Shown here one piece after another: positions 17,001-53,002 of a stretch of DNA of 63,009 bases. The stretch is from a virus (taxonomy: Duplodnaviria > Caudoviricetes). Made by a program: the position numbers and the translations under genes. The notes under the pieces are model-generated. The model worked only from the letters and a program-made list of their open reading frames with translations. It had not been told where the DNA came from and searched no databases. The number at the start of each line of letters is the position of its first letter. Position 1 is the stretch's first letter. Location: positions 1-63,009 of IMG/VR virus record IMGVR_UViG_3300042514_001623; one strand, 5' to 3'.

Positions 17001-20000
17001 CGCGCGCCTGCCCGAGGGCGTCTACACCCCGCCGGCCGTGGCCAACACCGCCGCCATGGGCGACGCGGCCATCGTGGCGCTGCGCAACCCCAAGGTGCAG
17101 GAGGGCGGCCACTACGTCGAAGGCGACAAGCTGTACCGCCGCCTGCAGGACGTGGCCGGCGAGGCCCGCGCGGTTGAACTGACCCCGGACACCCAGTGGA
17201 CCGAGAAGACCAAGCTGGGCGAGGAAGGCTTTGCGCGCATCAAGGCGCTGGCAGGCCTGCGGCAGACCCTGCGCGACCTGCTGGCGGCCGAACTGGCCGA
17301 CGCCAAGGACATCGAGGCGCTGCGCACGCGCCTGAACACGGAGTACGACGCCTACGCCAAGCGGCACGGCCTCATCAACGACCGGCCCAGCGCCCGGGTG
17401 TTCGATGACGACCCCGACTACCCGCTGCTGGCTTCGCTGGAGCACGGCTTCACGCCGGGCATCGGCGCTGCGGCCGCGCGGAAGATGGGCGTCAAGCCCA
17501 TGCTGGCCACGGCCAAGAAGGGCCCGATCTTCAAGGCCCGGGTGATCGAGAAGCGCACCGCGCCGACCCGCGCCAGCAGCCCGGCCGACGCCCTGAACAT
17601 CAGCATGGCCGAGCGCGGCCGCATCGACGCGGCCTACATCGGTGAACTGCTGGGGATCAGCGGCGAGGAAGCGCTGCGCGACATGAGCCAGGGCGCCAAG
17701 CCGCTGCTGTTCATGGACCCGGCCAGCAACGAGTACGTGCTGCGCGACGCCTACCTCTCCGGCAACGTGCGCGCCAAACTCGCGCAGGCCCGCCAGGCCG
17801 GGATGATGGCCAACGCCCGCGCGCTCGAAGAAGTGCAGCCGCCCGACGTGAGCGCCGGCGAGATTTCGGTGCGCGTGGGCTCGCCTTGGGTGCCGACGCC
17901 GGTGTACGAGGCTTTCGCGCGCCACCTGTTCGGCGACGGCACCTCGGCCAAGTTCATCTACGTGAAGGCCAACTCTTCCTTCATGGACGCCATATCGGGC
18001 GAATCCGACGTGGCTTCCAGCGCCACCTGGGGCACGCCCAGCTACCCGGGCCCGCAGATCCTGACCTCGCTGATGAACAACCGCGAGATCAAGGTGATGT
18101 TCAAGGACGCGGACGGCAGCCTGAAGGTCGACCGCGAAGCCACCGATGCGGCGAACCAGAAGGCCACCGAGATCAAGCAGGCCTTCAGCGACTGGGTGTT
18201 CAGCGACCCGGAGCGCGCTGACGTGCTGACCAAGGCCTACAACGAGGCCAACAACAACTACGTGACGCGCGCCTTCGACGGTGGCTACATGCAGTTCCCG
18301 GGCAAGGTGCCCGACAGCATCATCAAGTTCCGCCGCCACCAGCGCAACGCCATCGCGCGCATCGTGCAGGACCGCACCGCGCTGCTGGACCATGTGGTGG
18401 GCGCCGGCAAGACCTTCACCGTGATCTCCGCGGCGATGGAGCTCAAGCGCACCGGGCTGGCGAACAAGCCTCTCATCATGGTGCCGAACCACTTGGTGAA
18501 GCAGTGGGCGGCCGACTTCTACCGCCTGTACCCCGGCGCCAACATCCTCACGGCCACCAAAAAGGACTTCGAGAAGACCAACCGCCGCCGCTTCCTGGCC
18601 AAAATCGCCACGGGCAACTGGGATGCCGTCATCATGGCGCACTCATCGTTCGGCTTCATCAAGCCGGCGCCCGAGTTCGAGGCCCAGTTCAACGAGCAGC
18701 AGGTCAAGAACGTGATGGACACCATCGACGCGGTGAACGCGGGCGATGCTGACGAGGGCACCAAGAAGCGCACGGTCAAGCAACTGGCCGCGTTGAAAGA
18801 GCGGCTGGAGAACCGCATCGACGCGCTGCGCCAGAAGCCGATCGACGCGCTGCTGGACTTCAAGGAAATCGGGGTCGATCAGCTGTTCGTGGACGAGGCG
18901 CACTTGTTCAAGAACCTGATGTTCACGACCAAGATGCAGAACGTGCGCGGCCTGGGCGACTCGGCCGGCTCGCAGCGCGCCTACGACCTGTTCATCAAGA
19001 CGAACCAGCTGTACGCGCAGAACGGCCGCGGCCAGGGCGTGGTCTTCGCCACCGGCACGCCGGTGTCCAACTCGCTGGCCGAGATGTATCACATGATGCG
19101 GTACCTGATGCCGCAGGCCCTGCAGGAGGGCGGCTTCGAGTCGTTCGACGCCTGGGCCAACACCTTCGCATCCGTCGAACAGGTGTGGATGCAGAAGATC
19201 TCGGCCAACGGCTTCAAGGCCGACAACCGCATGAGCACCTTCGTGAACACACACGAACTGCTCAAGATGTTCGATCAGGTTGCGGACACCGTGACCATGG
19301 ACGACATCAAGAAGGCCTACGCCGAAGAGAACGACGGCCGCGAGTTCCCCCTGCCCAAGCTGAAGACCGGCCGCCGCCAGCCGGTGTCCCTGGACAAGAG
19401 CCAGGCGCAGGAGGACTACATGGCCGCGGTGGCGGCCCGTGCCCAGGCCATTGAGGGCAAGCGCACCAATGAGAAGGGCATGGACAACGCCCTGAAGATC
19501 ATGGGCGACGCGCGCAAGGCCGCCATGGACATCCGGCTGGTGGATGTCACCATCACCGAGCGCGAGAAGGGCGGCCGCATCGACCGCGCCGCCGACGAGA
19601 TCGCAGCGCGCTACCGCCAGTACGGCGACGTGAAGGGCACGCAACTTGTTTTCTCGGACCTGGGCACGCCGATCAAGCACGCCCGCGAGGAAATGAAGGA
19701 GTGGGAGGCGCTGCAGGCCCGCATCCAGAAGGGCGTGGACCCGGAAACCGTGACCGCGGCGAACTTTGGCAACGAGGCCGCCATGAAGGTGGTGGAGGAC
19801 GCCGAAGACGCGCAGCGCGAGATGGACGAGAAGGGCGCCGACTGGCTGGACGCCGTGAAGGCGGCCTTGCGCGGTTTCTCGGTGTACGACGACCTGCGCG
19901 CAGCGCTGGTGGAGCGGGGCATTCCCGACAGCGAGATCGCCTTCATCCACGACTACAACACCGACGACCAGAAACTCAGCCTGTTCCGCAAGATGAACGC

Positions 20001-23000
20001 GGGCGACATGCGCGTGCTCATCGGCTCCACGCCCAAGCTGGGCGCCGGCACCAACGTGCAGGACCGCCTGGTGGCGCTGCACCACCTTGACGTGCCTTGG
20101 AAGCCCAGCGACGTGGAGCAGCGCGAGGGCCGGATCATCCGCCAGGGCAACAAGCTCATGGACACGGTGCCCGGCTTCGAGGTGGAGATCCTGGCCTACG
20201 TGACCAAGGACACCCTGGACATGCGCATGTGGCAGGTTCAGGAGACGAAGCTGAAAATGATTAATCAGCTTCGCACGCGCCAGATCAGCCGCGAGATCGA
20301 CAACGCTTTCGAGGACATGGAAATGTCCGCGGGCGAGATGCAGGCCGCCGCCACCGGCAACATGGACCTGCTGAAGGAGATCCAGCTTCGCACCGACGTG
20401 AAGAAGCTAGAGCAGGCCAAGCGCAGTTTCGACGCCACGCGCAACGATCTCGTGTCGCGCCGCCGGCGCGCAGACGAGGCGGTGGCCACCCTGCCGGCCA
20501 AGATTGCCCGCGCCGAGAAGATGGCCGAGGCATCCAAGGCCTACACCGACGCGCAGAAGGCGCAGGCCGAGCGTTTCTCGGTGACGGTCAACGGCAAGGC
20601 CTACACCGACGCCCGCGAGGCTGGCGCGGTGCTGCAGGCCTTCGTGGACGCCAAGCAGTTCACCAAGAAGGGCACCGACATCGTTCTGACGCCTGAGCAG
20701 TACCAGGCCATGGACGAGGACGAGCGTTCGGCCAGCAACGGCTGGCAAGAGCGCCCGGTGCCGCTGAAGGTGGAAATGGACGGCAAGACCTACACGGCGC
20801 GCGCTGCGCTGGGTGAGGCTTTCGCCGACCTGCGCGGCGACGTGAACGACGCGCCGCTATGGCAGGTGGACGGGCAGACCTACATCCGCCGCACCAAGGC
20901 CGCCGCGGCCATCGCGCAGCGCGTGGCCGACAGCATGGCCGAGATGACCGAGGCCGAGGTGGGCCGCATCGGCCCCTTCACCGTCACGGTGGAAGGCCAG
21001 CCGCCCAGCGCCTACGCCACGGGCACGACGGGCCTGGAGGTGGTGATTCGCGCGCCTGGCGGTGTGGAGGCGAGCACGACGCTGAACTTCAAGGACATCG
21101 CCAGCGAGGACGACGCCCGCAAGGCGGCAACCGGCGTCATCAACGCGGCCATGAGCCTTGCCAGCGGTGGCCAGCAGCAGGTGTTGTGGCTGCGCAGTGA
21201 CTTGGAGCGACAGCAGCGCGTGCTGGCCGACTTGGCCACGGCCAAGGTGGCGGCCGATTTCCCGCAGCAGGACAAACTGGAAGCAGCCCGCGCGGCGCAC
21301 AAGGAAGTGCTGGCGCGACTGGCGGCCAAGCCCGAGCAGCCTGCAGCGCCCGAGGCCGATGAGGCCGCCGGCGACACCGCACTCAGCCGCGGCGCTGGCC
21401 GCGGTGTGGCCATGGCCGACGCCGAAGCGGCCCGCGACGCCCTGCTGCGCGCGATGCCCAAGGCGCCGCGCATCACCCTGCTGGAACGTGTCGACCAAGC
21501 CCCGGCAAGCCTGCTGAGCAAGATCAGCAGCGCTGGCGCGAGTGCCGACGTGGAGGGCGCCTTCCACGAGGGCGAGGTGTTCATCTTCCCGGGCAACATC
21601 GACAGCCTGGAGCGCCTGCAGTTCGTCATGGCGCACCACGAGTTGCGGCACTACGGGCTGCGCTCGCTGATGCCCAACCAGAACCGCCGCGGCCCGCTGC
21701 TGCTGGCCATCTACAACACCAACCCCGAGATCCGCCGGCAGGCCGACGACAAGATGGCCGCCGGCCTGGCTGGCAGCAAGGTGCTGGCGGTGGAGGAAGC
21801 CCTGGCCGACATGCCGGTGGAGCAGATGCAGGCGCTGAAGGGCGGCCCGCGGCTGCTGGCGGCGCTGCGCGACGTGCTGCGCAAGCTGGCCGAGGTGTTC
21901 CGCAGCCTGGGCTGGGTGCGCGTGGCCGATGCCCTGGAGCCGGCGACGTGGACCGATGCTGACGTGGTGGCCCTGGTGCGCCGGGCTGAAGCGGTGAGCC
22001 GCACGGGTGGGCCGCTGTTCCGGGTGGGGGATACGGCTTTCAGCCGCAGCCCGAGCGTCGCCACCAAGGCCTTGACCGCCGCCCTGTCCAAGCCCGGCGC
22101 CGCGCTGCGCGACGTGCGCCTGCCCGCCGGGTACGTGGTGGGCGACTGGTTCGGCAACAGCCTGGGCCGCCTCCACTGGTGGCACAAGACCGTGGGCACG
22201 CCCTACAACCTGGCAGAGCGTGAGCGCAGCTTCCGGCCGGTGTTCGAGTCGATCCAGAACTTCATGGACGACATCAGCCACTACGCCACCGAGGCGGCCA
22301 ACCTCGCGCCGAGCATCCTGCCCAAGCTGGAGAGCATCACCGACATCCTGAAAGCCCCGCTGCCGCCGGCCGACGTGAAGGCCTTGGCCGCGCCGGTGTT
22401 CGAGGGCACGCTGGGCTGGGGCCGCGACTTGGACGGCAAGCCGGTGCGCATGGTGGATCTTGAGGCGAAGGCCGCACAGCTGAGCGCCGAGGACAAGGCG
22501 CAGGAGATGCTGCGCCGCCGGCTGCTGAACCCGCGCGTGCTGAAGATGTGGCAAGGCCTGCCGCTGGAGCAGTTCGAGGCGGCTGTGGAGACGCGCTACC
22601 AGAACGAGGTGCTCAAGCCCGGTGTGGTGTGGTCCGATGGCGAGCTGCGCACGATGTTCGGTCTGAGCCCGCGCCAGATTGCGCTGTACCGCGAGTTCCG
22701 CAGCGCCACCGACAAGAGCCTGGACGATCTCACCATCACCACCATGCTGCGCGTGGGTGGCGAGGAAGTGGCGGACCTGCGCGAGCAGGTGCTGGCTGAG
22801 CCCGACCTGATGACGGCGGCCGAGCTCATCCGCGACCGGCTGTTCGACCTGGCAGAGCAGCAGCCCGAGAACGCCGACGCGATGAACGCGCGTGGCAACG
22901 GCATCATCGACATCGCCGACCGGGTGGAAGACCTGAAGGACCGCGGCTACGCGCCGCTTTCGCGTTTCGGGCAGTACACCCTGGACGTGGTGACGCCGGA

Positions 23001-28449: not shown

Positions 28450-29766
28450 CTATGCAGCGCGCCCCTTCGTGCCCTTGGGCTCCCCGGCCGCACTGGTTCG
28501 AGTCCAATCGCGCCTACCAACATCCGGCCCCGTCTTCTCCTCGGAAGACGGGGTTTTTTGTTGCCCGGACGCCAGGGCCTGGGGAGATTCCAGGGGGATT
28601 TCCTGCCCGGTCATGGCCGCCGCCAGGCGCTGCCGTTCGCTGCCGCCGTCGTTTTCGGGAATCCAGCGCGCGTAGGTGTCCAGCAGCATCTTGACGCTGT
28701 GCCCGGCCTGCGCCGCGATGTACCCGGGCTTGATGCCCCGCATCAGCGCCACCGTGCAGTAGGTGTGCCGGGTGCAGTACGGCCGGCGCCGGCGCACGCC
28801 CAGCAGCTTCAGCGTGGGAACCCAGTAGTGCTCGCGCTGGCTGCGTTCATCGTGCCAGGGCCTGCCCGTCACCGGGTTCTCGAAGATGTCCACCTCGCGG
28901 CCCTCGGTGTCGCGCTTCATGGCGGTGTAGGGCTTCATGGCCTTCAGCGCGTCCAGGGCCGGCGGCACGAGATCCACGTCGCGCACGGTGTGCGTCTTCG
29001 ATCCCTCGCGCTCGGAACCCATGAACGTGCGCACGCGCTGCACCCGGGCCGTGGCCGCGTTCCAGTCGATGTCTTCCCAGCGCAGGGCGATGATCTCCTC
29101 GGGCCGCATGCCGGTGAAGAACGCAAAGGCGAAGTAGGCCCACACGCGGATGTCGTAGCGCTTGCGCATGCTGGACAGGATGGCGTCGCGCTCCGCGATG
29201 GTCAGCGGGTCGGGCAGCTTCTTGACCACGCGGCGGTTCGTGATGTCGGCCAGCGGGTTCTCCAGCGCCTTCGGGCCGCGGAACTCCATGGCGAAGACCC
29301 CCCGCAGCGGGATCATGTAGTTGTTGAACAACCGCGCCGAGGACCACGGGTAGCTGCCGATCTTCACGCTCAGCACCTTGTGGGTCAGTTCGGCCAGCGG
29401 CTTGTCGGCGCCCAGCACCTGCTTCCACACCTTCAGGGCGTTGCGGTACTGCGCGCGGGTGGCCGGTGCGAGCTCGCCCTGGGCCTTCAGCCAGTCGTCG
29501 GCCAGCGCGCCGAAGGTCAGCGCAGCGGCGGGCGCGGCGGCGGCGCGCGGCGAGTCGGGGAAGAACTCGGCCAGGTCGAACGTGCCGGCCGCGATGCGCG
29601 CCCGGATGGCCGCGATGACGCGGTGGGCGTGCTTGATGTTGGGCCCCGTGGGCAACATCGGCACGCCGTTGGTGGTGAGGGTTTCGCGCATGCTCACGCC
29701 GGCGACGGTGAACGCCAGCCGGATGCTCTTGGCGCGGATCTCTACGCCGCTGCCGCCACGGCCCAT
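28450..29766 (-). CDS. int: Tyrosine integrase with N-terminal arm-binding domain
   Basis: TGMRPEE, K(T), YCTRHTY, AGHS..M....Y catalytic pattern. Confidence 0.93.
   Translation of the reverse strand: MGRGGSGVEIRAKSIRLAFTVAGVSMRETLTTNGVPMLPTGPNIKHAHRVIAAIRARIAAGTFDLAEFFPDSPRAAAAPAAALTFGALADDWLKAQGELAPATRAQYRNALKVWKQVLGADKPLAELTHKVLSVKIGSYPWSSARLFNNYMIPLRGVFAMEFRGPKALENPLADITNRRVVKKLPDPLTIAERDAILSSMRKRYDIRVWAYFAFAFFTGMRPEEIIALRWEDIDWNAATARVQRVRTFMGSEREGSKTHTVRDVDLVPPALDALKAMKPYTAMKRDTEGREVDIFENPVTGRPWHDERSQREHYWVPTLKLLGVRRRRPYCTRHTYCTVALMRGIKPGYIAAQAGHSVKMLLDTYARWIPENDGGSERQRLAAAMTGQEIPLESPQALASGQQKTPSSEEKTGPDVGRRDWTRTSAAGEPKGTKGRAA
28494..28519 (+). other. attP core: 3' end (T-arm, acceptor strand, CCA) of a tRNA, probably tRNA-Val(GAC)
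   Basis: TGGTTCGAGTCCAATCGCGCCTACCA; no tRNA 5' half upstream; adjacent to and inside int. Confidence 0.8.
28528..28559 (+). terminator. Intrinsic terminator after the attP tRNA fragment
   Basis: CCCCGTCTTC-N6-GAAGACGGGG-T6. Confidence 0.8.
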
Positions 29767-30660: not shown

Positions 30661-31197
30661 TCAGAACGCGGCGATGAGCTCGTGCAGCGCGCGGCTGTAG
30701 CTCTCCATGGCCGCCAGTTGGGCATTCATGCGGCCCTGTTCCTCGGCGGGCAGGCTGGCGAAGACCGGGCCCTTGCCGAACGTGCTCAGCTTGACGATGC
30801 GCTCGTCCAGTTCTGCGGCCTCGGCGCGCACGCGGTCGCGGTGGTCGGCCGGCACGCTGGCCAGCTTCTCCTTCAGGGCGTAGCCCAGCAGCGGCCACAG
30901 TTCCTGCTTCGCGTTCTCGAACGCCACCTTTTCCCCGATGGCCGCGTCGTCGTTCTCGGGTGACACCGCCACAGAGGGCCGGCCAGTGACGGCAAAGCCG
31001 TTCGGCGTGGTGATGACGCACCACCGCAGCACCTGCCCGCACGGTGCGACGTGCCTGACGAACTCGTGCATGGTGATGGCTCTGGCGAGGTCAGCCGGCG
31101 TGACGCGCGGCGCGGTCAGGCCCTTGGCTTTGATCTCCTGCTCGATGGCGTTGTCGTCGGTGCGGGGGGATTCGATGCGGTTCATGGGGAGGTTCAT
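30661..31197 (-). CDS. Phage Gp49/Gp66-family domain fused to a crAss001_48/T4-Y16Q-like helical domain
   Basis: APRVTP...CVI...NGF.VTG....SPEN.D..IG..A...A...LW.L.GY.L, then RV..E..EL..RI.KL..F...F..L...EQ.....Q...M..Y...L...I. Confidence 0.75.
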   Translation of the reverse strand: MNLPMNRIESPRTDDNAIEQEIKAKGLTAPRVTPADLARAITMHEFVRHVAPCGQVLRWCVITTPNGFAVTGRPSVAVSPENDDAAIGEKVAFENAKQELWPLLGYALKEKLASVPADHRDRVRAEAAELDERIVKLSTFGKGPVFASLPAEEQGRMNAQLAAMESYSRALHELIAAF

Positions 31198-44870: not shown

Positions 44871-46113
44871 CTTCCCCAACATCGAAGCCCCGGCCGCCGC
44901 GCCGGCCCCGCGCACCGAGGTTGCCACCGCCGCAGCCCAGGCCCTGGACCTTGCCAAGATCGACCTGGCCGCCGTGGTGCGCCAGCAGTTCGGCGACTGG
45001 CGCGCGGCCACGGCCCAGCTGAAGGCCGACAACGCCAAGACCGTGCTGGACCTGACCACGCAGAGCCGGGTGGACGAAGCCCGGTCCCTGCGCGAGCGCA
45101 CGATCAACAAGCCCATCGCCGAAGCCCGCAAGACCTGCAAGGCGCTGAAATCGACCCTGGCCAGCGCAAGCAAGGTGGCCGGCGACGAGGTGGACGCCCT
45201 GGTGCTGGCCTACGAGGAAGCCGCGGCGCCCATCACCAAGCAGATTGACGAGGCGCAGGCCCGGTTCGACGCTGCCAAGGCCGAGAAAGAGCGCCTGGAG
45301 CGCGAGGCCCAGGAGCGCCACGCCGCGCGCCTGCAGGTGATCGCCGGCTACCTGCTGCGCTGCCAAGAGGTGGGCATGACGGCTGAGCGCATCGCCCTCG
45401 GCATCAAGACCTTGGCCGACAGCGACGTGAGCGACACCGACGCCGCCCGAGCCGAAGCGCTGGCCGGCGCCAAGGCACGCGCGCTGGAGCAGATGGGCAC
45501 GCTGCACGCCCAGGCCGTGGCCCGGGAAGCCGAGGCAGCGCGGCAGGAGGCCATCCGCGTGGAGAACGAGCGCCGGGCCGCCGAGCTTGCCGAGCAGGAG
45601 CGCCGCATTGCCGCCGAAGCCGCCGCCATCCGCAAGGCCGCCGAGGAACTGGCCGCGCGTGAGGCCGCGGCACGGGCTGCGGAGGCCGCTGCCAAGCAAG
45701 CCGAGAACGACCGGCTGGCCGCCTTGGACCTGAAGCGCGCCGCCGAGCTTCAAGCGGAGTTCGAGGCCAGCTGCGCAGCCGCCACGGCGCGCGAGAAGGC
45801 CGCCCAAGAGCGCTACATCGAAGACCGCCAAGCCGACCCGATCCGCGCCGACGACCCCGACGCTGCCCCGCACACCACGGCAGCCGAGATGGGCGGCGAC
45901 CGCGCCGACCCGGGCGAGGCCGTGGGGCTGGCCGAGGTGAACCCGGAGCCGGCAACTGTCAAGGAATCCTTGACAGCTGAGCCCACGCCCGCCGACACCC
46001 TGCGCGCCCTGGCCGCCGAAGCCCGCGCGAGCCGCGTCCCCACGAACCCCAAGATGGGCCCGGAGTGGTGGGCCCGCTGGTTCGCCGCCGTCGATGCGCT
46101 GGAGGTGGCGTGA
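44863..46113 (+). CDS. Long coiled-coil hypothetical protein (416 aa)
   Basis: GAGGA RBS; Ala/Glu/Arg-rich. Confidence 0.75.
   Translation: MLDFPNIEAPAAAPAPRTEVATAAAQALDLAKIDLAAVVRQQFGDWRAATAQLKADNAKTVLDLTTQSRVDEARSLRERTINKPIAEARKTCKALKSTLASASKVAGDEVDALVLAYEEAAAPITKQIDEAQARFDAAKAEKERLEREAQERHAARLQVIAGYLLRCQEVGMTAERIALGIKTLADSDVSDTDAARAEALAGAKARALEQMGTLHAQAVAREAEAARQEAIRVENERRAAELAEQERRIAAEAAAIRKAAEELAAREAAARAAEAAAKQAENDRLAALDLKRAAELQAEFEASCAAATAREKAAQERYIEDRQADPIRADDPDAAPHTTAAEMGGDRADPGEAVGLAEVNPEPATVKESLTAEPTPADTLRALAAEARASRVPTNPKMGPEWWARWFAAVDALEVA
45956..45976. repeat. Perfect 10-bp palindrome inside CDS
   Basis: CTGTCAAGGA-A-TCCTTGACAG. Confidence 0.8.
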
Positions 46114-46550
46114 TGGGCCTGCGCTGCACCAAATGCGGCCGGCGCGGGCACGTCATGGAGCGCTGCACCGTTGACCTGCAAGCCGCCGCCCGCGAAGCTT
46201 GCGCGGCCATCCTGCGGGTCGCGCGTCAGTACCCGCAGGGGATTGAGCGCCGCACGCTGCTGGACGAGGCCGGCATCAAGCATGACCGGGGATTCAAGAT
46301 TCTCATAGCCCTGCGCAAATCGGGCGAGGTGGTCAAGCGGCAGACCGTAGACCGGCAGACGCTGTTCACCGCAGCCGAGCACGAAGCCGAGATGCTGGCC
46401 CATGTGGAGGCAGCAGCGAAGACCGCAGCAAACAAGGCCCCCGGCCGCCAGTGGCCCGAGGGCAACACATGGACCCCGCCAGCGCCGCGAATCCCCAGCG
46501 TGTGGCACCTGGCGCAGATGGCCGCCAACGAAGATCGGAGGGCTGCATGA
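46113..46550 (+). CDS. Hypothetical protein with Zn-knuckle (CxxCxxxGHxxxxC)
   Basis: CTKCGRRGHVMERC; GGAGG RBS. Confidence 0.65.
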   Translation: MGLRCTKCGRRGHVMERCTVDLQAAAREACAAILRVARQYPQGIERRTLLDEAGIKHDRGFKILIALRKSGEVVKRQTVDRQTLFTAAEHEAEMLAHVEAAAKTAANKAPGRQWPEGNTWTPPAPRIPSVWHLAQMAANEDRRAA

Positions 46551-46861
46551 GCATCAAAGCACTGCGCGAGGCGCTGGCTGCGCCCGACAACTGGTTTGCG
46601 CGCGCGACATGGACACCGGCCGACTTTGACGATGCAGGCTACAGCGCTGCGCCGCGCGCCTACATCGCCGCAGCCTGCACCGCCGCCCCGGCTCTGCTGG
46701 CACGGTGCGATGAGCTGGCGGAGGCCGCACGGCAGGCGCTGGAGGCGCTTGAAGACGCACGCCACCACATGAGCGCATCGGGCGCATTCACTGAGATTCA
46801 ACTGGCCGCGCAAGACGCACTGCGCGTCGCCCTCAACAGCACACAGGAGAGCGCCAAGTGA
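46547..46861 (+). CDS. Hypothetical protein
   Basis: GGAGG RBS, ATGA overlap; YIAAA....P.LL motif. Confidence 0.65.
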   Translation: MSIKALREALAAPDNWFARATWTPADFDDAGYSAAPRAYIAAACTAAPALLARCDELAEAARQALEALEDARHHMSASGAFTEIQLAAQDALRVALNSTQESAK

Positions 46862-47058
46862 GCACACCACGCGACGACCGCCCCGCATACATGGCCGCCA
46901 TGCTGAGCGGCAACCACGTTCAGGCGCTGGCGATCGAGCGCCGCCACGGCTTGGACGGTTACCCGCCCGACCTGGTGAGCGTGGGCCTCAAGGCTGCTGC
47001 TGAAGGCCGCGATGCGCTGGAAGCCGTCGAAGCCCACATTGAGGAGAGCGCATCATGA
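46858..47058 (+). CDS. Hypothetical protein
   Basis: AGGAG RBS, GTGA overlap. Confidence 0.65.
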   Translation: MSTPRDDRPAYMAAMLSGNHVQALAIERRHGLDGYPPDLVSVGLKAAAEGRDALEAVEAHIEESAS

Positions 47059-47804
47059 GCACCAAGACCGAGGCCGGGCCGGTGGCGCCGGTTTGCTATT
47101 GCCCTCCTGAGCTGCTGCTGAAGCTAGACGACGAGGATTATCGCGCTGGATGGATGGCGCGCGTGAAAAGCGCGCCGAATGCCGTGTTCAGCGTCCCCCT
47201 CTACGCCCACCCGCCCGCACAAGAGCATCCCAACCTAGCGTGCAAGTCAGTGCAAAAGCGCCTTGCTACGCAGTGGGGCTACGTGCCCGCACAAGAGCAG
47301 CCGGCGCCCGGTGGAATGCCGAACGGCTACGAGGCCATGACTACCTGCTACAAGCGGTACGTCTCGCCTGCGCAGTACGCCGCCTTCTCGCCCGGGGTGC
47401 AGAAGTGGTATCGGCCTTTCTGGACTGCCACCCACCCCACGCCAGCCGAGCGCGCAGAGCAGCCACAAGCCGAGCAGGAACTGCGCGAGCTGCTGGCTGT
47501 GCGTGTGGCCGGTGCGCTGCTGTACGCCGACGATGGCGAATTGCAGGACGCCAGCGAACTGCCGGCCATCGACTTCAAGCGGGACGCCCCGGGCGAGATT
47601 GCTCGCAAGCTGACAGACCGGGGCCTGAAGCGCCTGACGCGCGCAGAGCAGCCCCCGCGCGATGCCGTGCAGCAGGGGCTGACGGATGAGCAGATTGATG
47701 CACTGTGGCGCCAGGCCGCATCCGCAGACGGATTCACTACGGCGCAGTTCGTGCGCGAGTTCGCCCGCGCCATCGAGCGCGCCACCCTGAAAGGCCAGCC
47801 ATGA
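47055..47804 (+). CDS. Mosaic hypothetical protein (249 aa)
   Basis: PLYAHP, LYADDGELQD, LTDEQI...FARAIE phage modules. Confidence 0.7.
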   Translation: MSTKTEAGPVAPVCYCPPELLLKLDDEDYRAGWMARVKSAPNAVFSVPLYAHPPAQEHPNLACKSVQKRLATQWGYVPAQEQPAPGGMPNGYEAMTTCYKRYVSPAQYAAFSPGVQKWYRPFWTATHPTPAERAEQPQAEQELRELLAVRVAGALLYADDGELQDASELPAIDFKRDAPGEIARKLTDRGLKRLTRAEQPPRDAVQQGLTDEQIDALWRQAASADGFTTAQFVREFARAIERATLKGQP

Positions 47805-48103
47805 GCGGCGGGGACAGTGCGGGTCGGGGGGTGTTGAGCGAGGGGCTAGGCCTGGCTCCGGAGCGCCTGAGCGAAGACCGCGCACGCACGCTTATTGAGG
47901 CATGGCTGGACGAGCACGCCCAAGGATACCCGGACTACTCGCTGTGCGAAGACGGCGACGATGCCTGGGCCTTCTGGATCGCCGAGAAGGACACCACCAG
48001 TTACCTGCATTCCGATGGCCGCGTGGAGTGGTACGGCACCGGGTGGCCGGAGATCTACCAGTACGACGGCGACTCCGGCCTGTGGTCGTCGGCAAGGGCC
48101 TAA
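47801..48103 (+). CDS. Cassette A ORF, hypothetical (100 aa)
   Basis: Reads across a degenerate R' (GCTAGGC 47845); stop in GCCTAAC. Confidence 0.65.
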   Translation: MSGGDSAGRGVLSEGLGLAPERLSEDRARTLIEAWLDEHAQGYPDYSLCEDGDDAWAFWIAEKDTTSYLHSDGRVEWYGTGWPEIYQYDGDSGLWSSARA

Positions 48104-48116
48104 CGGACAGTTAGGC
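48098..48116 (+). repeat. Collapsed mini-attC (R''-5 nt-R')
   Basis: GCCTAAC-GGACA-GTTAGGC. Confidence 0.65.
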
Positions 48117-48137
48117 ATCACTGCAACGAGGAACACG

Positions 48138-48338
48138 ATGAAGAAACTACAACTTACCCCGTGGTTCAAGGCGGCGACACAGAAGCCAGTCCGTCGCGGC
48201 TGGTACGACTTCTATGACGGACTTTGGGGCCAGCATGTGCGCGCCATGTGGAACGGCACCTACTGGGTTTGGCAGGAAGGCACCCGCATCGACCCATACC
48301 CGTGCGACAAGTGGCGCGGGGTTTCGGGTGATGCCTAA
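48138..48338 (+). CDS. Cassette B ORF, Trp-rich hypothetical (66 aa)
   Basis: GAGGA RBS; LTPWF...KPVR.G.Y...W.G..W...WRG; stop in GCCTAAC. Confidence 0.7.
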   Translation: MKKLQLTPWFKAATQKPVRRGWYDFYDGLWGQHVRAMWNGTYWVWQEGTRIDPYPCDKWRGVSGDA

Positions 48339-48441
48339 CGCGCGAGCTAACCGGCCCGCAGAGGGCCAGAGGAGTGACAGGTGAGCACAGACGATACGAG
48401 CCCCGCTACTGCGGGTCCGGTGGTTCAGCGCGGTGTTAGGC
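48333..48441 (+). repeat. attC-like site (109 bp)
   Basis: GCCTAAC...CCGGCCCGCAG / CTGCGGGTCCGG...GTTAGGC with bulged bases. Confidence 0.8.
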
Positions 48442-48743
48442 CCTGCGCGTGGTGGCGCGAGAGCATTTACGCGGAATGCTGGCCGTGCGTGACCGTAGAC
48501 GAAAAGGAGGCCGAGTTCTGGCGCTCCGAAGGGCTGACGGTTGTTGAGCTGGGTGACGTGGCCGCAGAACGCGCAGAGTCGGCGCGGCTTCGCCACCTCC
48601 TGAATCTGGCGCGCGACGACTACAACACTGCGGCGCAGCGGCTGCAAGACATTGGCGACTACGCGCACGACCACAGCACCGGCCCAGCAGTGCCGGATGC
48701 GCTGTGGGAAGTGTGCTCAATGGCCTACGGTTCAGGGGCCTAA
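48381..48743 (+). CDS. Cassette C ORF, hypothetical (120 aa), starting inside the upstream attC
   Basis: GAGGAG RBS and GTG in the attC loop; stop in GCCTAAC. Confidence 0.7.
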   Translation: MSTDDTSPATAGPVVQRGVRPCAWWRESIYAECWPCVTVDEKEAEFWRSEGLTVVELGDVAAERAESARLRHLLNLARDDYNTAAQRLQDIGDYAHDHSTGPAVPDALWEVCSMAYGSGA

Positions 48744-48860
48744 CGTTCGAGTTCACCCGGACTCCAACAGCGCGAGGATCACAAATTGAATGAGAAAGCC
48801 ACAAATTCCGATGAGAGCCGGCCCGCTGTTGGTGGTCCGGGGTGCAACGAGGGGTTAGGC
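48738..48860 (+). repeat. attC-like site (123 bp)
   Basis: GCCTAAC...CCCGGACTCCAACAGCG / CGCTGTTGGTGGTCCGGG...GTTAGGC. Confidence 0.8.
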
Positions 48861-49178
48861 CCGCTGCCAACCATCCGGCCCGGTGAAACAGACGCGGAGT
48901 TTGTGGCGCAGATTGAGGCCACGCACTGCCGGCCGCTGACGCCACCGGAGCGGATGCCGCAATACATCCGCGACGAGTTGCCTGATGAACTGGCAGCCCA
49001 TCGTTTGCAGGCGTGGGCAGATGCGCGCGTGGCCGCAGAGCGCGCGAGATTCCTGCGCCTCATTGCGCGGCACTGCGAAGACGCCTGCGTGGCCGCCGTA
49101 CTCGAAGACTCAGTGCGCCTCGGGTTGGATGTGGGGCCTAACGTCGGAAATCAGGCGGACCCGGAGGCGAAGCCGTAG
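48786..49178 (+). CDS. Cassette D ORF, hypothetical (130 aa), starting in one attC and ending in the next
   Basis: GAGGA RBS and TTG in the attC loop; reads through GCCTAAC at 49136. Confidence 0.6.
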   Translation: MNEKATNSDESRPAVGGPGCNEGLGPLPTIRPGETDAEFVAQIEATHCRPLTPPERMPQYIRDELPDELAAHRLQAWADARVAAERARFLRLIARHCEDACVAAVLEDSVRLGLDVGPNVGNQADPEAKP

Positions 49179-49205
49179 GGGCTCGCCTGCATTGACCAGT
49201 TAGGC
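49136..49205 (+). repeat. attC-like site (70 bp)
   Basis: GCCTAAC...CAGGCG..CCC...GGC-GAA-GCC...GGG..CGCCTG...GTTAGGC. Confidence 0.8.
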
Positions 49206-49233
49206 CACGGCTCCGAAGCGAAAGGACAAAAGC

Positions 49234-49515
49234 ATGCAAGCGTTGAGCGACCTGATAACTGCGGCAGTGCAACTGGCCGGCGCAGATGACACCGTGAGCC
49301 ACGGCGCGCGGCTGTGGCACAGCGAAGGCGGCCGGCGCTGCCCGCTTGGCTGGGAGGACTGCTCGCAGGCGGTGTACATGGACCTGAAGACCGGCGAGTA
49401 CGACTATGGCGATCCTGGCGGCCCTGGGCATGCGGACTGCGAACGCAACTGCGCTCACGGCATGTTGCCTGCGCCGGAAGACGAGAACGAAGGCCCGTAT
49501 GCCTTGGTGGCCTAA
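49234..49515 (+). CDS. Cassette E ORF, Cys/His-rich hypothetical (93 aa)
   Basis: AAGGA RBS; W.S.GGR.CP....CSQ.VY......YDYG..GGP...C; stop in GCCTAAC. Confidence 0.72.
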   Translation: MQALSDLITAAVQLAGADDTVSHGARLWHSEGGRRCPLGWEDCSQAVYMDLKTGEYDYGDPGGPGHADCERNCAHGMLPAPEDENEGPYALVA

Positions 49516-49614
49516 CGTTGGAGCTGAACGGGCACCAACGGCAGGCACAGATTAACCCGGAGCGCGCCACGGCAACCCTGCCGTTGGGGCTCCGATTCGA
49601 GCGACGAGTTAGGC
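49510..49614 (+). repeat. attC-like site (105 bp)
   Basis: GCCTAAC...CCAACGGCAGG / CCTGCCGTTGG...GTTAGGC. Confidence 0.8.
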
Positions 49615-49640
49615 CACGCTGTGGCCGGAGCGAGAAAACG

Positions 49641-49871
49641 ATGGCAAAGCGATTCACCAAGGCGGCACTTGTCGAACAACTGCGCGACCTTGCGGACAAC
49701 GTGCAGCAGACCCGCCACTTTGACGGCGGCAACGGCACCGCGCAGCTTCGCCCGCGCGGATGCGATGAAGCCACCCAAGCGCTGATTGATAAGGCTGTGG
49801 ACTATGGCCGCTGGCGCACGCTCCACAACTTGGCCGCGGACGTGGAGTGCGGGTGTATTGGCGTGGCCTAA
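49641..49871 (+). CDS. Cassette F ORF, hypothetical (76 aa)
   Basis: GGAG RBS; stop in GCCTAAC (49866-72). Confidence 0.68.
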   Translation: MAKRFTKAALVEQLRDLADNVQQTRHFDGGNGTAQLRPRGCDEATQALIDKAVDYGRWRTLHNLAADVECGCIGVA

Positions 49872-49880
49872 CCCGTAGAT

Positions 49881-50246
49881 ATGCCACCTTTCCAAAGTCC
49901 GCGCAGGCCCGCGAGCCGCTGGGCCGCATACAACGCAACGCCAGGCGCGCACAAGCGCCGGAGCGCCGCGCGTGAGGCCGCCAGCATTGCCGGCCCGGCC
50001 CCGGCATACCCGCCGCTGGCCCCGTTGCATGGGGATTGGCTGGGCGGGTCCATAAACGGCAAGACCGTCATCATGCGGCTGATGCGAGATCCGCAGCACC
50101 GTTCTGACCAGTGGGCGGGCGAGATCGACGGCGAGGCGGTGACGGACGCCGCCGGCCTGACGCGGCTGTGGGAACTGCTGAGCAAGCGCTGGCCCAAGGC
50201 GCCGAGCCGGCGCACGCTGGCTGGGTTGGGAAAGCGCGAAGGGTGA
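49881..50246 (+). CDS. Hypothetical protein (121 aa)
   Basis: ORF after the last R'' box. Confidence 0.5.
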   Translation: MPPFQSPRRPASRWAAYNATPGAHKRRSAAREAASIAGPAPAYPPLAPLHGDWLGGSINGKTVIMRLMRDPQHRSDQWAGEIDGEAVTDAAGLTRLWELLSKRWPKAPSRRTLAGLGKREG

Positions 50247-50400
50247 CACCCTCCCCAAGTTGGGTGCAGAATCCCTCCAGCCCGCGCAAGGGCGCCACGT
50301 CATCGGGCCTTCCAGGCCCCACGCTTCCCGGCTGTGCCGGGTGACTGCTGCTAGACAGCACAGACTGGTAGGGCGAACTCGCCCCTAAATTTCCACCATC

Positions 50401-50438
50401 AGCCCGCCCCGGGAAACCGCGGCGGGCTTTGTCGTTCT
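50401..50438 (+). terminator. Terminator-like hairpin before the late module
   Basis: AGCCCGCC...GGCGGGCTTTGTCGTTCT; same flanks as the 60886 hairpin. Confidence 0.55.
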
Positions 50439-50448
50439 GGAAGCGCTT

Positions 50449-50888
50449 ATGACCCCTGCCATCGTGCGCGGCGCCTTCCGCTACGGTGACAGCCGCCCCT
50501 TCGCTCGCCTAGTTACGCTGCTGCGCGGCGGCGACTCGGCGCACTGCGAAGCCGCGTGGCAGTGGGAAGGCTCGCTGCATCGGTGCGTGTCGGCCTCGGG
50601 CTGGACGGCGGCGTGCGCGCCAAGGACATCGAGATGCCGGCCGACAGGTGGCGCATCTACGAGGTGCCTGCGCGCGCAATGCCGCAAGCCTGGGGGCTGC
50701 TGCGGGCGTCGCACGGCTACGACGTGCTGGGCCTGCTGGGCATCCTCTGGCCGATCCTGGGGCATCGCACGCGCCGCTGGTTTTGCAGCGAGGCCGTCGC
50801 CGACATGCTCGGCCTGCCCGAACCTCAACTGTTCGACCTGCGAACCCTCGAATCCGTGTGCGCCTTGATTGGGCGTCGCGTGCAGTAA
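50449..50888 (+). pseudogene. Frameshifted permuted papain-like (NlpC/P60, YiiX-like) protein
   Basis: Frame 1 carries SAHCE...CVSAS; after ~50599 another frame carries LDGGVR.K...YD..G...WFCSE; one-base loss. Confidence 0.7.
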
Positions 50889-50914
50889 CACAACAGCCGT
50901 TTTAGGAGCCACAC

Positions 50915-51391
50915 ATGGCCGCTTTCGTTTTCAACATCGCCCTGGGCCGCGTTGCCGAGCTCTACCGCCGCGTCAAGGGCAACGACCCCGCCAACAGCGC
51001 CCTGGTGCTGGTGGCCATCAACAACGGCGGCACCACCGACGCCACCATGCAGGACTACACCACGCTGTCGGCCTTGCTGGCCGATGCTGGCGTGGCCGAG
51101 GTCACCAACAGCGGCTACAGCCGCAAGGTGCTCACCGACGCCGAGCTGGCATCGGTGCCCGCGCCCGACAGCACGAACAACCGCATCGAGCTGAGTCTGC
51201 CGGCGCAGACCTGGGCCACCATCGGTGCGGGCACGGCCTGGACTGACCTGGTGGTCTGCTACGACCCTGACACCACGACGGGCACCGACGCCGACCTGAT
51301 CCCGCTGACGCTGAGTGACTTCGTGAAGACCCCAGACGGTGGCGACATCCCGATGGCGGCCGGCGTGTTCTTCCGGGGCAGCGCGGCCTGA
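50915..51391 (+). CDS. Probable virion structural protein (158 aa)
   Basis: AGGAG RBS; FVFNIA.GR..E...NDP, E.T..GY.RK.L motif of minor virion proteins. Confidence 0.7.
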   Translation: MAAFVFNIALGRVAELYRRVKGNDPANSALVLVAINNGGTTDATMQDYTTLSALLADAGVAEVTNSGYSRKVLTDAELASVPAPDSTNNRIELSLPAQTWATIGAGTAWTDLVVCYDPDTTTGTDADLIPLTLSDFVKTPDGGDIPMAAGVFFRGSAA

Positions 51392-51403
51392 CGGGTCTGA
51401 GCC

Positions 51404-53002
51404 GTGGCTGTCTCAATCGTTGACGGCACGGCCGCCGCTGCCTGGCTGGCCGCAACCACTCAGCGCGCACAGCTCGAAGCCCTGGCGGCGCCGTGGGGCG
51501 GGTCTGCGGTGACGGCGCGCTTCTTCAGCGCTGGCGGCGACTTGCTGCGCACGCAGACCCTGCCGGCCCTGAGCATCGACACGGTGGCGGCTCCGTACCG
51601 TTTCAACCTCGGCCGCTACGTGGCAGACACCCATGTGGCCGAGGGCACGGCTGCGCGCCTGGATCTTCGCGCGGGCTCTACAGACATCGTGCGGCTGGAC
51701 TGCGGCCTGACGGGCTCGGGCGCCAGCGTAGAGCTTGCAGGGCCGCTGAAAGAGCTTTGCCCGCCCGACCTGGCCGGCGTGGAGTTGCTGGCGGATAGCG
51801 CGCTGCCTGCCGGGCCGCCGAACACGCTGCTGCTGACCGACGACGGGATGATGGCGAATGGCACTTTGCCCCTCGGCTCTCTTGAGTTGGACGGGGCGGT
51901 GTTCGTCGGCCACAACTCGCAAGACGGCCCGCGCGTGGCAAAGCATGTGCTTGCCACCGGCGTGACCACGGTCAGCGACTCGCTGCGCACGGCCATCGGC
52001 AATTCAGACCACTCAGCGCCGTGCGTCGTTGCGCGAAGCGATGGCAGGCTGACGGCCTTCTACTCGCGCCACAACATCGAAAACACCGCGTATCAGCGCA
52101 CCACCGTCAACCCCGGCGACGTGTCGTCTTGGGGCACCGAGGTCAATCTGAACGATGGCGGCGCCATCACCTATCCGAGCGTGATCGTGTGCGGCTCTCG
52201 GTGGCTGCTCACCTTCCGCGTGGACAACTCGTGGCGCTACCGCGTCAGCACTGACGAGGGCGCCACCTGGGGGCCGGGCATCACTGCGGCCACCTACTCG
52301 GGCGACGGCTCGGGCTCGCGGCCTTACCTGCTGCCTGTGTGGAATGCGGCGCAGAGCCGGGTTGACTTCGCCGTCATCGCCCAGGGTGCTGACCGCTTCC
52401 TTGTGCCCTACCTCTGGCACGTCTACGCGACTTTCGACGGCAGCAACGCGCTGACCTTCTTCAAGACCGATGGCACTTCGCTGGGCGCCGCCTTCGATGC
52501 TGCAAACGCCACCGAGATTTACAACGGCGCGCCTGATGGCGTGGACATCGCGTTCCAAATCGTCACGATCAACCCGAGCACCGGCGCGGTCTGGATCATG
52601 GCGCGTCGCATCAACAGCACCACCAGCAGCGACATGCTGCTGTATCGGCAGAACGGCACCGGCTGGCTGGGCCCTTCCACCATCTACAACGCGGGCTATC
52701 CCACAAGCCCAACGCGCACCGACTACGTGCCGGGGGCGGTCTTCCACCCGACCGACCCGACCCGCGTCTTCGGCATCCGGTCAACCGGCTACAGCGGCCC
52801 GAGCCGCTTGGCCGAGTACGCCACCACCGATGGCGGCGCCACATGGGCTTTCGTGCGCGAGATGACTCCGTGGAGCGAAGACAACGTGGAGCTGCTGCGG
52901 CCCCACGCGATTCAGAACGGCACCAAATATCTGGTGGCCTGGGCCAGCGGTCGCTTCACGGAGCTGACCGATTGGGACACATCAATTCTCATGGGAGCCT
53001 GA
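51404..53002 (+). CDS. Virion-associated protein with BNR/Asp-box beta-propeller (sialidase/lyase-like)
   Basis: STDEGATW and TTDGGATW Asp-boxes; DH.AP, YSRHN, TYP motifs. Confidence 0.7.
   Translation: MAVSIVDGTAAAAWLAATTQRAQLEALAAPWGGSAVTARFFSAGGDLLRTQTLPALSIDTVAAPYRFNLGRYVADTHVAEGTAARLDLRAGSTDIVRLDCGLTGSGASVELAGPLKELCPPDLAGVELLADSALPAGPPNTLLLTDDGMMANGTLPLGSLELDGAVFVGHNSQDGPRVAKHVLATGVTTVSDSLRTAIGNSDHSAPCVVARSDGRLTAFYSRHNIENTAYQRTTVNPGDVSSWGTEVNLNDGGAITYPSVIVCGSRWLLTFRVDNSWRYRVSTDEGATWGPGITAATYSGDGSGSRPYLLPVWNAAQSRVDFAVIAQGADRFLVPYLWHVYATFDGSNALTFFKTDGTSLGAAFDAANATEIYNGAPDGVDIAFQIVTINPSTGAVWIMARRINSTTSSDMLLYRQNGTGWLGPSTIYNAGYPTSPTRTDYVPGAVFHPTDPTRVFGIRSTGYSGPSRLAEYATTDGGATWAFVREMTPWSEDNVELLRPHAIQNGTKYLVAWASGRFTELTDWDTSILMGA

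Follow-up and report, generated by a model that had tools for sequence, protein, structure and literature searches.

Layout of the array

We have analyzed an array of small gene units in IMG/VR virus record IMGVR_UViG_3300042514_001623. The record has 63,009 bp with direct terminal repeats, an estimated completeness of 100%, and a GC content of about 68%; it is a complete temperate-phage genome, from lake water. We refer to this whole stretch of 63,009 nucleotides as the window. Positions 47769-49872 hold six gene units, which we name A to F, together with four full hairpins of the attC class (the recombination site of integron gene cassettes) and a mini-hairpin; the left edge is marked by a degenerate site and the right edge by a lone core. 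All the array features described below lie on the plus strand.

The array is defined by the heptamer GCCTAAC and its inverse GTTAGGC, which occur 11 times in the 63,009 bp, always within 48098-49872 and with the strands alternating: six copies of GCCTAAC and five of GTTAGGC, in strict alternation. Dinucleotide shuffles of the window have 2.99 ± 1.68 copies on average, and none of 100 shuffles reaches 11. From left to right, we find gene A, GCCTAAC, 5 nt, GTTAGGC, and then genes B to F with a hairpin between each, and a lone GCCTAAC last.

At the left edge there is a degenerate attC remnant of repeat family D3 (47769-47851), which retains the TTGAGCGAGGG arm next to a core changed to GCTAGGC; a related viral array, L001, has an intact GTTAGGC in its place. 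Our covariance model for these sites, R1, which was trained on 70 bacterial sites from arrays of integrase-bearing genomes, gives this remnant 15.9 bits (E-value 0.057). ORF (open reading frame) A (47801-48103, 100 aa) starts inside the remnant, and its stop codon is the TAA of GCC-TAA-C; its homologue in L001 (6810-7085) spans the GTTAGGC core at 6843. Then comes the mini-hairpin (48098-48116), 19 nt in all, made of GCCTAAC, five bases, and GTTAGGC, without the inner (L) stem. Similar mini-hairpins occur in three viral arrays and one bacterial array (L017 at 3166, L103 at 4863, L108 at 8542, L207 at 1224). They consist of two cores only with 4-7 bases between, while excision by an integrase should leave a whole site.

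ORF B (48138-48338, 66 aa) again stops at the core TAA, and has no Pfam or PHROGs family. It is followed by the B/C hairpin (48333-48441), in whose loop ORF C (48381-48743, 120 aa) begins, with a GTG codon six bases downstream of an AGGAG; ORF C reads through GTTAGGC. After the C/D hairpin (48738-48860, with a fold z-score of -3.66), ORF D (48786-49178, 130 aa), which has a TTG start in the hairpin loop, is the irregular one. It bypasses the core TAA at 49139-49141 and continues in another frame to 49178, so that it stops 37 nt past that TAA, inside the next hairpin, and its third-position GC signal is weak in all frames; a frameshift, or a frame called wrongly, might account for this end. The short D/E hairpin (49136-49205), ORF E (49234-49515, 93 aa), the E/F hairpin (49510-49614), and ORF F (49641-49871, 76 aa), which also stops at the core TAA, complete the series. 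The terminal lone core (49866-49872) is the right edge of the array. No hairpin comes after it, and 49855-49960 folds no better than shuffles do (z-score -0.8).

The two ends of each unit match each other

A sequence-only reading of this array had proposed that the end of each gene is complementary to the front of that same gene well beyond the 7-bp core. We reproduce the perfect matches as they were given: 12 bp for B, 9 for C, 9 for D, 10 for E, and 12 for F. The two 12/12 matches are found where that reading placed them, between the front flank of unit B (48110-48121) and 48328-48339, and between the front flank of unit F (49608-49619) and 49861-49872. In the window, the specificity of these matches is modest. 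The own-gene matches sum to 52, a value reached by 2 of 120 permutations (mean 42.2), while pairing across the hairpins as they stand in the array sums to 41. C and D can be exchanged for each other without loss (9 bp in every case), E matches both its own partner and that of F over 10 bp, and F pairs 12 bp with its own vs. 11 with that of E. Within the window alone, specificity is carried by B and, narrowly, by F.

Many more units can be compared in related arrays. A search from the conserved 249-aa gene to the left of the array found three viral contigs in which an array directly follows the homologue, with 13+13, 5+5, and 4+4 cores; the same gene found no relative in genome contigs, and ORF E used as a query found none in viral contigs. 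A 16-letter pattern taken from the conserved 3′ arm of the hairpins occurs in at least 115 stretches in viral contigs. All our figures for viral loci rest on the loci among the matches listed in that pattern scan, together with the kin found by protein search. Among the matches listed, the 118 viral loci divide into 41 with at least two core-to-core hairpins, 34 with a single one, and 43 without any.

The units tested, 230 distinct ones out of 276 raw, come from 90 viral loci. Their own-end match extends on average 2.85 bp beyond the core, vs. 0.65 for shuffled pairings (standard deviation 0.065, maximum 0.93), and none of 2000 shuffles reaches the observed value. Own ends that pair no better than shuffled ones would have spoken against the footprint, and we observe the opposite. 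The pairing across the in-array hairpins, on the other hand, extends only 0.66 bp (154 distinct hairpins). When the window and its five protein-found kin are removed (209 units), the own-end profile is unchanged. As a control, bacterial arrays with the same site type show an even longer own-end extension of 3.87 bp (403 distinct units, with a mode of 5 in 184 of them), vs. 0.65 for shuffles, none of 2000 reaching 3.87, and 0.80 for in-array pairing.

Position by position, the fraction of units that match at +1 to +5 beyond the core is 0.93, 0.88, 0.88, 0.85, and 0.71 in bacteria, dropping to 0.21 at +6. In phages it is 0.88, 0.83, 0.63, 0.50, and 0.35, and baseline afterwards. Because the match is at baseline from +6 in both sets, the outer stem of the circular site has at most 12 bp, which is the length found in units B and F. 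The set of unit pairs thus measures how far the outer stem of attC reaches in its circular form: 12 bp. We conclude that own-end complementarity is confirmed as real and general. What forms one site are the unit's own ends, and not the ends that flank a hairpin in the array, and such complementarity identifies units whose two ends were formerly joined in one site.

The hairpins match integron attC sites

In the account of Nivina 2016 (PMC5027507), an attC site has an R stem, an unpaired spacer of 5-6 nt, an L stem, and a variable loop, with a total length of 57-141 bp. The same account gives the extrahelical bases usually as G16 and a T at 23 or 24, sometimes with another base at 20, in the arm that lies opposite the 5′-AAC-3′ of the recombinogenic strand. 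The window has inverted outer cores of the form RYYYAAC and GTTRRRY. Its four hairpins are 70-123 nt long and fold in this way: the outer stem opens into an internal loop of about 5 nt, and the inner stem, which has single-base bulges, is closed by a variable loop. The mini-hairpin, with its 19 nt, falls outside the attC range. In the predicted fold of the plus strand, and counting inward from the outer end of the core, E/F has bulges G16, A20, and T24 on its 3′ arm, the one opposite GCCTAAC. The family consensus, likewise from predicted folds, has bulges G16 and T23, and C/D has them near 16 and 22. As far as predicted folds can tell, these would be the extrahelical bases of attC.

Model R1 matches the four hairpins full-length on the plus strand, with 76.4 bits for E/F (E-value 5e-15), 58.9 for B/C (3e-11, plus strand only), 58.1 for C/D (5e-11), and 41.1 for D/E (2e-7). 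The best minus-strand match in the window, at D/E, reaches 10.1 bits (E-value 1.1). Over the viral loci, R1 has at least 363 matches with E-value ≤0.001, distributed in at least 98 loci. As for other kinds of hairpins, we found no terminator-like sites in 46500-51000, where shuffles predict 3.2, and no Rfam match with E-value ≤1 in 47000-51000.

A search of bacterial genomes for a core, a gap, and an arm plus core retrieves 93 stretches, mostly in Burkholderiales genomes and metagenome-assembled genomes; the carriers of these arrays include Rubrivivax, Piscinibacter, Pseudaquabacterium, Aquabacterium, and Methylibium. All five of the array-bearing genomes tested have an integron integrase, with scores of 447-475 bits for TIGR02249 (cut-off 265). 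At three of these five integrase loci the array starts beside intI, and the motif strand faces away from intI, as in canonical integrons; the other two have no motif match within the short flank that was examined. The phage sites are of the same attC family as those of the chromosomal integrons of Burkholderiales (Rubrivivax, Piscinibacter, Pseudaquabacterium).

The proposal that the units are attC-type cassettes, as opposed to terminators or generic hairpins, therefore holds, because of the covariance-model match, the canonical bulges, the footprint in the bacterial arrays, the inheritance of the hairpin with one side only (described next), and the lack of any terminator-like site.

Probable location of the genes on the bottom strand

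The sequence-only reading was right about the cassettes and wrong about their polarity. It had taken the GCCTAAC at gene ends as R'', and placed the opening of the circle at G^TT, before the gene. Instead, GCCTAAC acts like the core that is cleaved on the recombinogenic bottom strand, and the predicted crossover is GCCTAA^C; G^TT applies only on the minus strand of the window. The GTTAGGC in front of the genes is the uncleaved core, and the coding strand is the attC bottom strand. The footprint is blind to this, because both polarities predict the same pairs bracketing each gene. It also follows from the reversed polarity that a gene's own hairpin lies upstream of the gene and not downstream. 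Four lines of evidence agree on the coding strand being the bottom strand: the side of the bulges together with the strand of the model match, already presented, the orientation of the genes, the starts of the ORFs, and co-inheritance.

With the motif placed on the plus strand, bacterial units read mostly on the minus strand (286 minus vs. 67 plus, 62 unclear), and viral units mostly on the plus strand (201 plus vs. 50 minus, 22 unclear). A stricter test, which counts frames that end in the core TAA, gives 158 to 18 in bacteria and 36 to 76 in viruses (minus to plus, motif again on the plus strand), with many units open on both strands. At least 3 units could be called in 37 viral loci: plus units predominate in 23 of them, the other 14 are mixed, and minus units predominate in none. 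In integrons the ORF is usually, although not obligatorily, on the attC top strand; in the window all ORFs are on the bottom strand. As for the starts, ORFs A, C, and D begin within their upstream hairpin, and those of C and D have their ribosome-binding motifs in the loop.

Co-inheritance asks which neighbor a hairpin arm travels with. For homologous viral genes in different records, the 14 nt before GTTAGGC share 11.47 of 14 positions, vs. 8.05 for random pairs, while the 14 nt after GCCTAAC share 5.84 vs. 5.47, and are not co-inherited. Of the discordant pairs in the viral set, 19 favor the arm before GTTAGGC and 1 the other arm, and the bacterial control is split 26 to 2. The hairpin goes with the downstream gene (the B/C hairpin belongs to C), and it keeps one fixed neighbor, as a cassette's hairpin should. 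Earlier linkage tests were weak (cluster contexts of 4 to 2 and 1 to 2, and only one viral pair among units with exact hairpins); having few pairs, and with identical interiors found mostly between genes unrelated on both sides, they were replaced by this 14-nt arm test. As an example, the cassette of ORF E is common to L002/L003 and L032 (tblastn 78-82% over residues 1-77). In three arrays with this cassette the upstream genes are unrelated, yet all share the unusual front GACCA-GTTAGGCCAC (spacer, core, and flank), and all retain the matching end GTGGCCTAAC despite differences in the coding sequence of the C-terminus.

The sequence-only reading also suggested circularizing each cassette in silico. 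Using the reversed polarity, the circular site folds better than the in-array site in four cases out of five: -13.3 vs. -6.8 kcal/mol for A/B, -30.3 vs. -27.2 for B/C, -23.1 vs. -20.8 for D/E, and -35.6 vs. -31.2 for E/F. C/D shows no gain.

We thus think it probable that this is an attC cluster without an integrase, carried by a phage, in which the genes lie on the bottom strand, the crossover occurs at GCCTAA^C, and a cassette consists of a hairpin and the gene downstream of it.

An array without an integron integrase

The genome has only one tyrosine recombinase (28450-29766, minus strand), which has the Pfam domains Arm-DNA-bind_2 and Phage_integrase and provides the single PF00589 match. 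It is a phage integrase with an arm-binding domain, and not an integron integrase: the best TIGR02249 match in the complete phage genome has 14.6 bits, in comparison with a cut-off of 265. Of the features of a complete integron, intI, attI, and the promoter Pc are all absent from the 63,009-bp genome, and none of 5 related virus records (2 of them complete) has an integron integrase. Since there is no intI beside the array in a complete genome, the array is a CALIN (cluster of attC sites lacking an integron integrase), and not an integron.

Proposed mechanism

Each unit would be a gene cassette whose two ends form one attC site when the cassette is a circle. The outer stem of that circular site would have up to 12 bp, that is, the 7-bp core and up to 5 more. 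When the circle is opened and inserted in a row with others, the two halves of the stem would come to lie at the two ends of one gene. The cut and join would take place at GCCTAA^C, directly after the TAA stop codon, by an integron integrase. We infer that this integrase is supplied by the host cell, because the phage does not have one and the chromosomal integrons of its likely hosts use the same type of site.

Integron integrases are induced by the SOS response, as are many prophages. The timing of cutting might follow from this: if SOS induces both the integrase and the prophage, the two would meet in time. In addition, early transcription of genes located on the bottom strand would release the very strand that must fold for recombination. 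If this is correct, the exposure of that strand by early transcription could explain the extreme turnover of units, and integrons would serve gene exchange in phages as well as in bacteria. A broader picture can be only tentatively offered, and we are inclined to doubt it: a wide range of freshwater Burkholderiales phages might keep integrase-less attC arrays as a variable compartment of the early operon, with a phage-specific pool of cassettes that are read from the attC bottom strand and shuffled by the SOS-induced integrase of the host.

Evidence against and alternative explanations

Several observations weigh against the reading of the array as a bottom-strand cassette cluster worked by a host integrase. 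Some concern polarity. The C/D circle does not fold better than the in-array site (-30.2 vs. -31.7 kcal/mol), and B/C folds better under the canonical polarity (-33.3 vs. -30.3 kcal/mol). A gene and the hairpin downstream of it are present in L002 and missing in L003, and the junction falls in GTTAGGC. Just past GTTAGGCC (48442/48443 and 48861), contigs in X14, X23, and X18 diverge from the window, and one of the 20 discordant viral pairs goes the opposite way. These misfit junctions may come from rare recombination of the other strand, from general recombination in the conserved arms, or from contigs of cassettes that share an arm; in particular, the loose ends after GTTAGGCC may come from other cassettes with the common arm. 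Other points concern the sites and the data. The 19-nt mini-hairpin and the short D/E site are outside or at the edge of the canonical attC sizes, and ORF D runs beyond a single cassette. The training sites of R1 were chosen by a phage-derived pattern, so the model is not fully independent. Four of the lake runs were seen as assembled contigs, which cannot show circles, junction reads, or rates, and some IMG/VR contigs could be misfiled bacterial DNA. No recombination has been observed, and the host is deduced from site type and base composition only.

It could also be that the hairpins are now mainly RNA or DNA signals of the phage, used for processing, translation control, or attenuation, with the units being reshuffled by general homologous recombination in the conserved arms, and the own-end match a relic of an integron origin on which no integrase acts any longer. 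We regard this as unlikely. The phage does lack an integron integrase, and C and D do start in hairpin loops, which also hold their ribosome-binding sites, but for signals of this kind we find no terminator-like site in 46500-51000 (3.2 expected) and no Rfam match. The own-end match at +3 to +5 is weaker in phages (0.63, 0.50, and 0.35 vs. 0.88, 0.85, and 0.71), in a way that resembles decay; yet the attC features are intact in at least 363 model matches at 98 or more viral loci, which argues for continued selection on the site. Hairpin interiors that are at least 90% identical between unrelated genes (26 of 35 viral pairs) would provide the homology for general recombination, and some junctions are on the side we did not predict. 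General recombination in two equally conserved arms, however, should break linkage on both sides, and we find it kept on one side (19 to 1, with 26 to 2 in the integrons); the gene content is also extremely varied, with 225 clusters in 276 units.

The canonical polarity, in which each gene has its own attC after it, the circle opens at the G^TT of the GTTAGGC in front of the gene, and the genes lie on the top strand, seems to us very unlikely. The own-end footprint fits it equally well. What L003 lacks relative to L002 is exactly a gene and its downstream hairpin, the lake contigs that branch just after GTTAGGCC do so where this polarity would have them, and the canonical B/C circle has -33.3 kcal/mol vs. 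-27.2 in the array. Against this polarity stand the bulges, which are on the arm opposite the AAC of the coding strand, and R1, which matches the plus strand only. Genes are opposite the motif strand in bacteria (286 to 67) and on it in viruses (201 to 50), with none of 37 viral loci mostly opposite; the hairpin arm is inherited with the downstream gene, 19 to 1; and ORFs A, C, and D would be severed at every excision.

Finally, chance or base composition, that is, GC-rich inverted repeats around short ORFs with no common mechanism, draws some support from the window alone, where only B and F discriminate while C, D, and E pair equally with a neighbor, but it has practically no probability left and is ruled out by the core count (0 of 100 shuffles reach 11), the own-end shuffles (0 of 2000 in both the viral and the bacterial sets), and R1 E-values down to 5e-15.

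Related arrays and variation in the population

Gene content is very diverse, with 276 viral units falling in 225 clusters, and it changes between phage genomes, as with the one unit that L003 lacks relative to L002. The hairpin interiors behave differently from the genes. Of the pairs of hairpins with interiors at least 90% identical, 26 of 35 viral and 1558 of 1686 bacterial ones are placed between genes unrelated on both sides. The attC site family is homogenized, a situation known for the repeats of Vibrio. A tblastx comparison (E-value <1e-6) of 276 viral with 415 bacterial units reports 4 pairs, 2 in the same and 2 in opposite orientation, which is uninformative with respect to exchange.

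The stretch is contained in 24 lake or freshwater sequencing runs, with 0.49 to 0.99 of the sampled words present; 2 of these runs may be the source sample. The assembled contigs from four of the runs include a joint from 47830 to 48848, which leaves out units A-C, a back-joint by which F precedes D with 21 other letters in between, and a unitig for 49511-49872 (depth 124) that corresponds to the E/F hairpin plus gene F. The contigs branch at both cores, with exits at or just after GCCTAAC at 49143, 48737, and 49511.

A different kind of joint occurs inside ORF D. A 115-bp piece (48930-49044) has 97.5% protein identity to a gene in L002/L003 (L002 4646-4849), where it comes after a segment similar to the 249-aa gene (residues 54-83). 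The depth of this piece in the lake contigs is high, and branch points of its own are seen there. This mosaic joint lies within genes and has nothing to do with the attC cores.

One locus stands apart in composition. L054, a 4.5-kb viral contig with ten GCCTAAC and eleven GTTAGGC, has a GC content of 0.48, far below that of the other loci, and its units are mostly too short or unclear for a strand call. It may represent a different host group or a misfiled bacterial array.

Comparison with known systems

The closest relatives are the sedentary chromosomal integrons of Burkholderiales. They share with the phage arrays the cores, the arms, the positions of the bulges, and the match to the covariance model, as well as the 12-bp limit of the own-end stem, the side of linkage relative to site polarity, and the near-identical hairpin interiors between unrelated genes. 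The phage arrays differ in not having intI, attI, or Pc, in having the genes on the bottom and not the top strand, and in having small units that are read as part of the phage early operon, with few cassettes in common with the bacteria.

Phage attC clusters are already published as a kind of element (Qi 2023, PMC9892861). As reported there, a survey of 10,705 NCBI phage genomes found integron components, including 17 CALINs, in 21 phages; IntI1 recombines 5 of 6 phage attC sites tested; and the hosts of these phages include Tetrasphaera, Polaribacter, Pseudoalteromonas, Vibrio, and Shewanella (Qi 2023, PMC9892861). Those phage CALINs are, like the array in the window, clusters of attC without an integron integrase. 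The family presented here differs from them in being formed by uncultured freshwater phage contigs and in having a conserved place between two conserved genes. Consistent bottom-strand genes are a property of the present family, and we found no description of them in Qi 2023, although its supplementary tables may bear on orientation. Nothing in our literature search described this freshwater family, how abundant it is in viral contigs, or phage arrays whose genes are consistently on the bottom strand.

The principle behind the sequence-only reading was the cassette boundary rule, which is said to come from the original Hall/Stokes papers. According to Joss 2009 (PMC2674596), a cassette starts at the first T of one R′ and ends at the G of the R′ that follows, and has its own attC only in the circular form. 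The footprint is the consequence of this rule at the sequence level, and the rule holds on the minus strand of the window. What goes beyond the rule is that the match reaches 5 bp past the 7-bp core, measured on hundreds of units; we found no paper that states this, in a literature search that was not targeted at such a paper.

Early operons of phages have hairpins of other kinds, such as T7-like RNase III sites, terminators, and sequences like REP (repetitive extragenic palindromic) repeats, which are also imperfect, have an internal loop, and are located between short early genes. Unlike those, the array region has no T-run terminator and no Rfam family, and own-end complementarity, one-sided linkage, and integron-site identity are not features of RNase III sites, terminators, or REP-like repeats.

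The own-end footprint is textbook integron biology, and alone it confirms only that the units are real cassettes. The significance is in the setting: a complete phage genome without an integron integrase carries the attC type of the chromosomal integrons of its likely hosts, and many viral contigs have such an array, with genes on the opposite strand from the one used in bacteria. If a host integrase does act on these arrays, then phages would be participants in the integron gene-exchange network, and not only targets of it, and the reversed orientation would be a natural test of the links between strand choice, transcription, and cassette expression.

Genomic setting and other observations

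The array closes a block of short, overlapping rightward genes and is followed directly by a block of larger ones in the same direction. The cassette ORFs (48138-49871) have a third-position GC content of 0.71-0.78, in comparison with 0.80-0.98 in the other called genes of the genome, and the 48-50 kb bin has a GC content of 0.647, with 0.680 and 0.689 in the bins on either side. ORFs A to F and the two ORFs downstream have no Pfam match, and the same ORFs, and also 46858-47058, have no PHROGs match. In the ESM Atlas there is no usable match for ORF E, and ORF C has only leads under 0.9. The place of the array in the early operon and the turnover of its units may point to accessory functions for the cassette proteins (66-130 aa).

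Two conserved genes bound the array, both on the plus strand. On the left, the 249-aa gene (47055-47804), whose homologue is directly before the L001 array (56% identity), has no Pfam family above the cut-off (one match is below it) and no PHROGs match. On the right, a 121-aa gene (49881-50246) has homologues adjoining arrays in L073 (90%), L004, and L028. After this right-flank gene there is a 200-bp gap (50247-50448) without a convincing ORF; it has a promoter-like site at 50243-50272 and a GC-rich inverted repeat at about 50400-50436, followed by TTTGTCGTT. A blastn search of 46000-51500 against the INPHARED phages finds no relatives, only four short matches (75-99 bp), all to a gene located to the right of the array (50915-51391).

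Farther away, a single ORF of 4647 aa (11047-24990, plus strand) occupies the large rightward block before the integrase module. It combines an Eco57I-type methylase domain (residues ~1793-1880) with SNF2, ResIII, and Helicase_C domains (~2426-3034). On the minus strand, 30661-31197 encodes a 178-aa protein that has an N4 gp49 / Sf6 gp66 domain and a domain related to crAss001_48.

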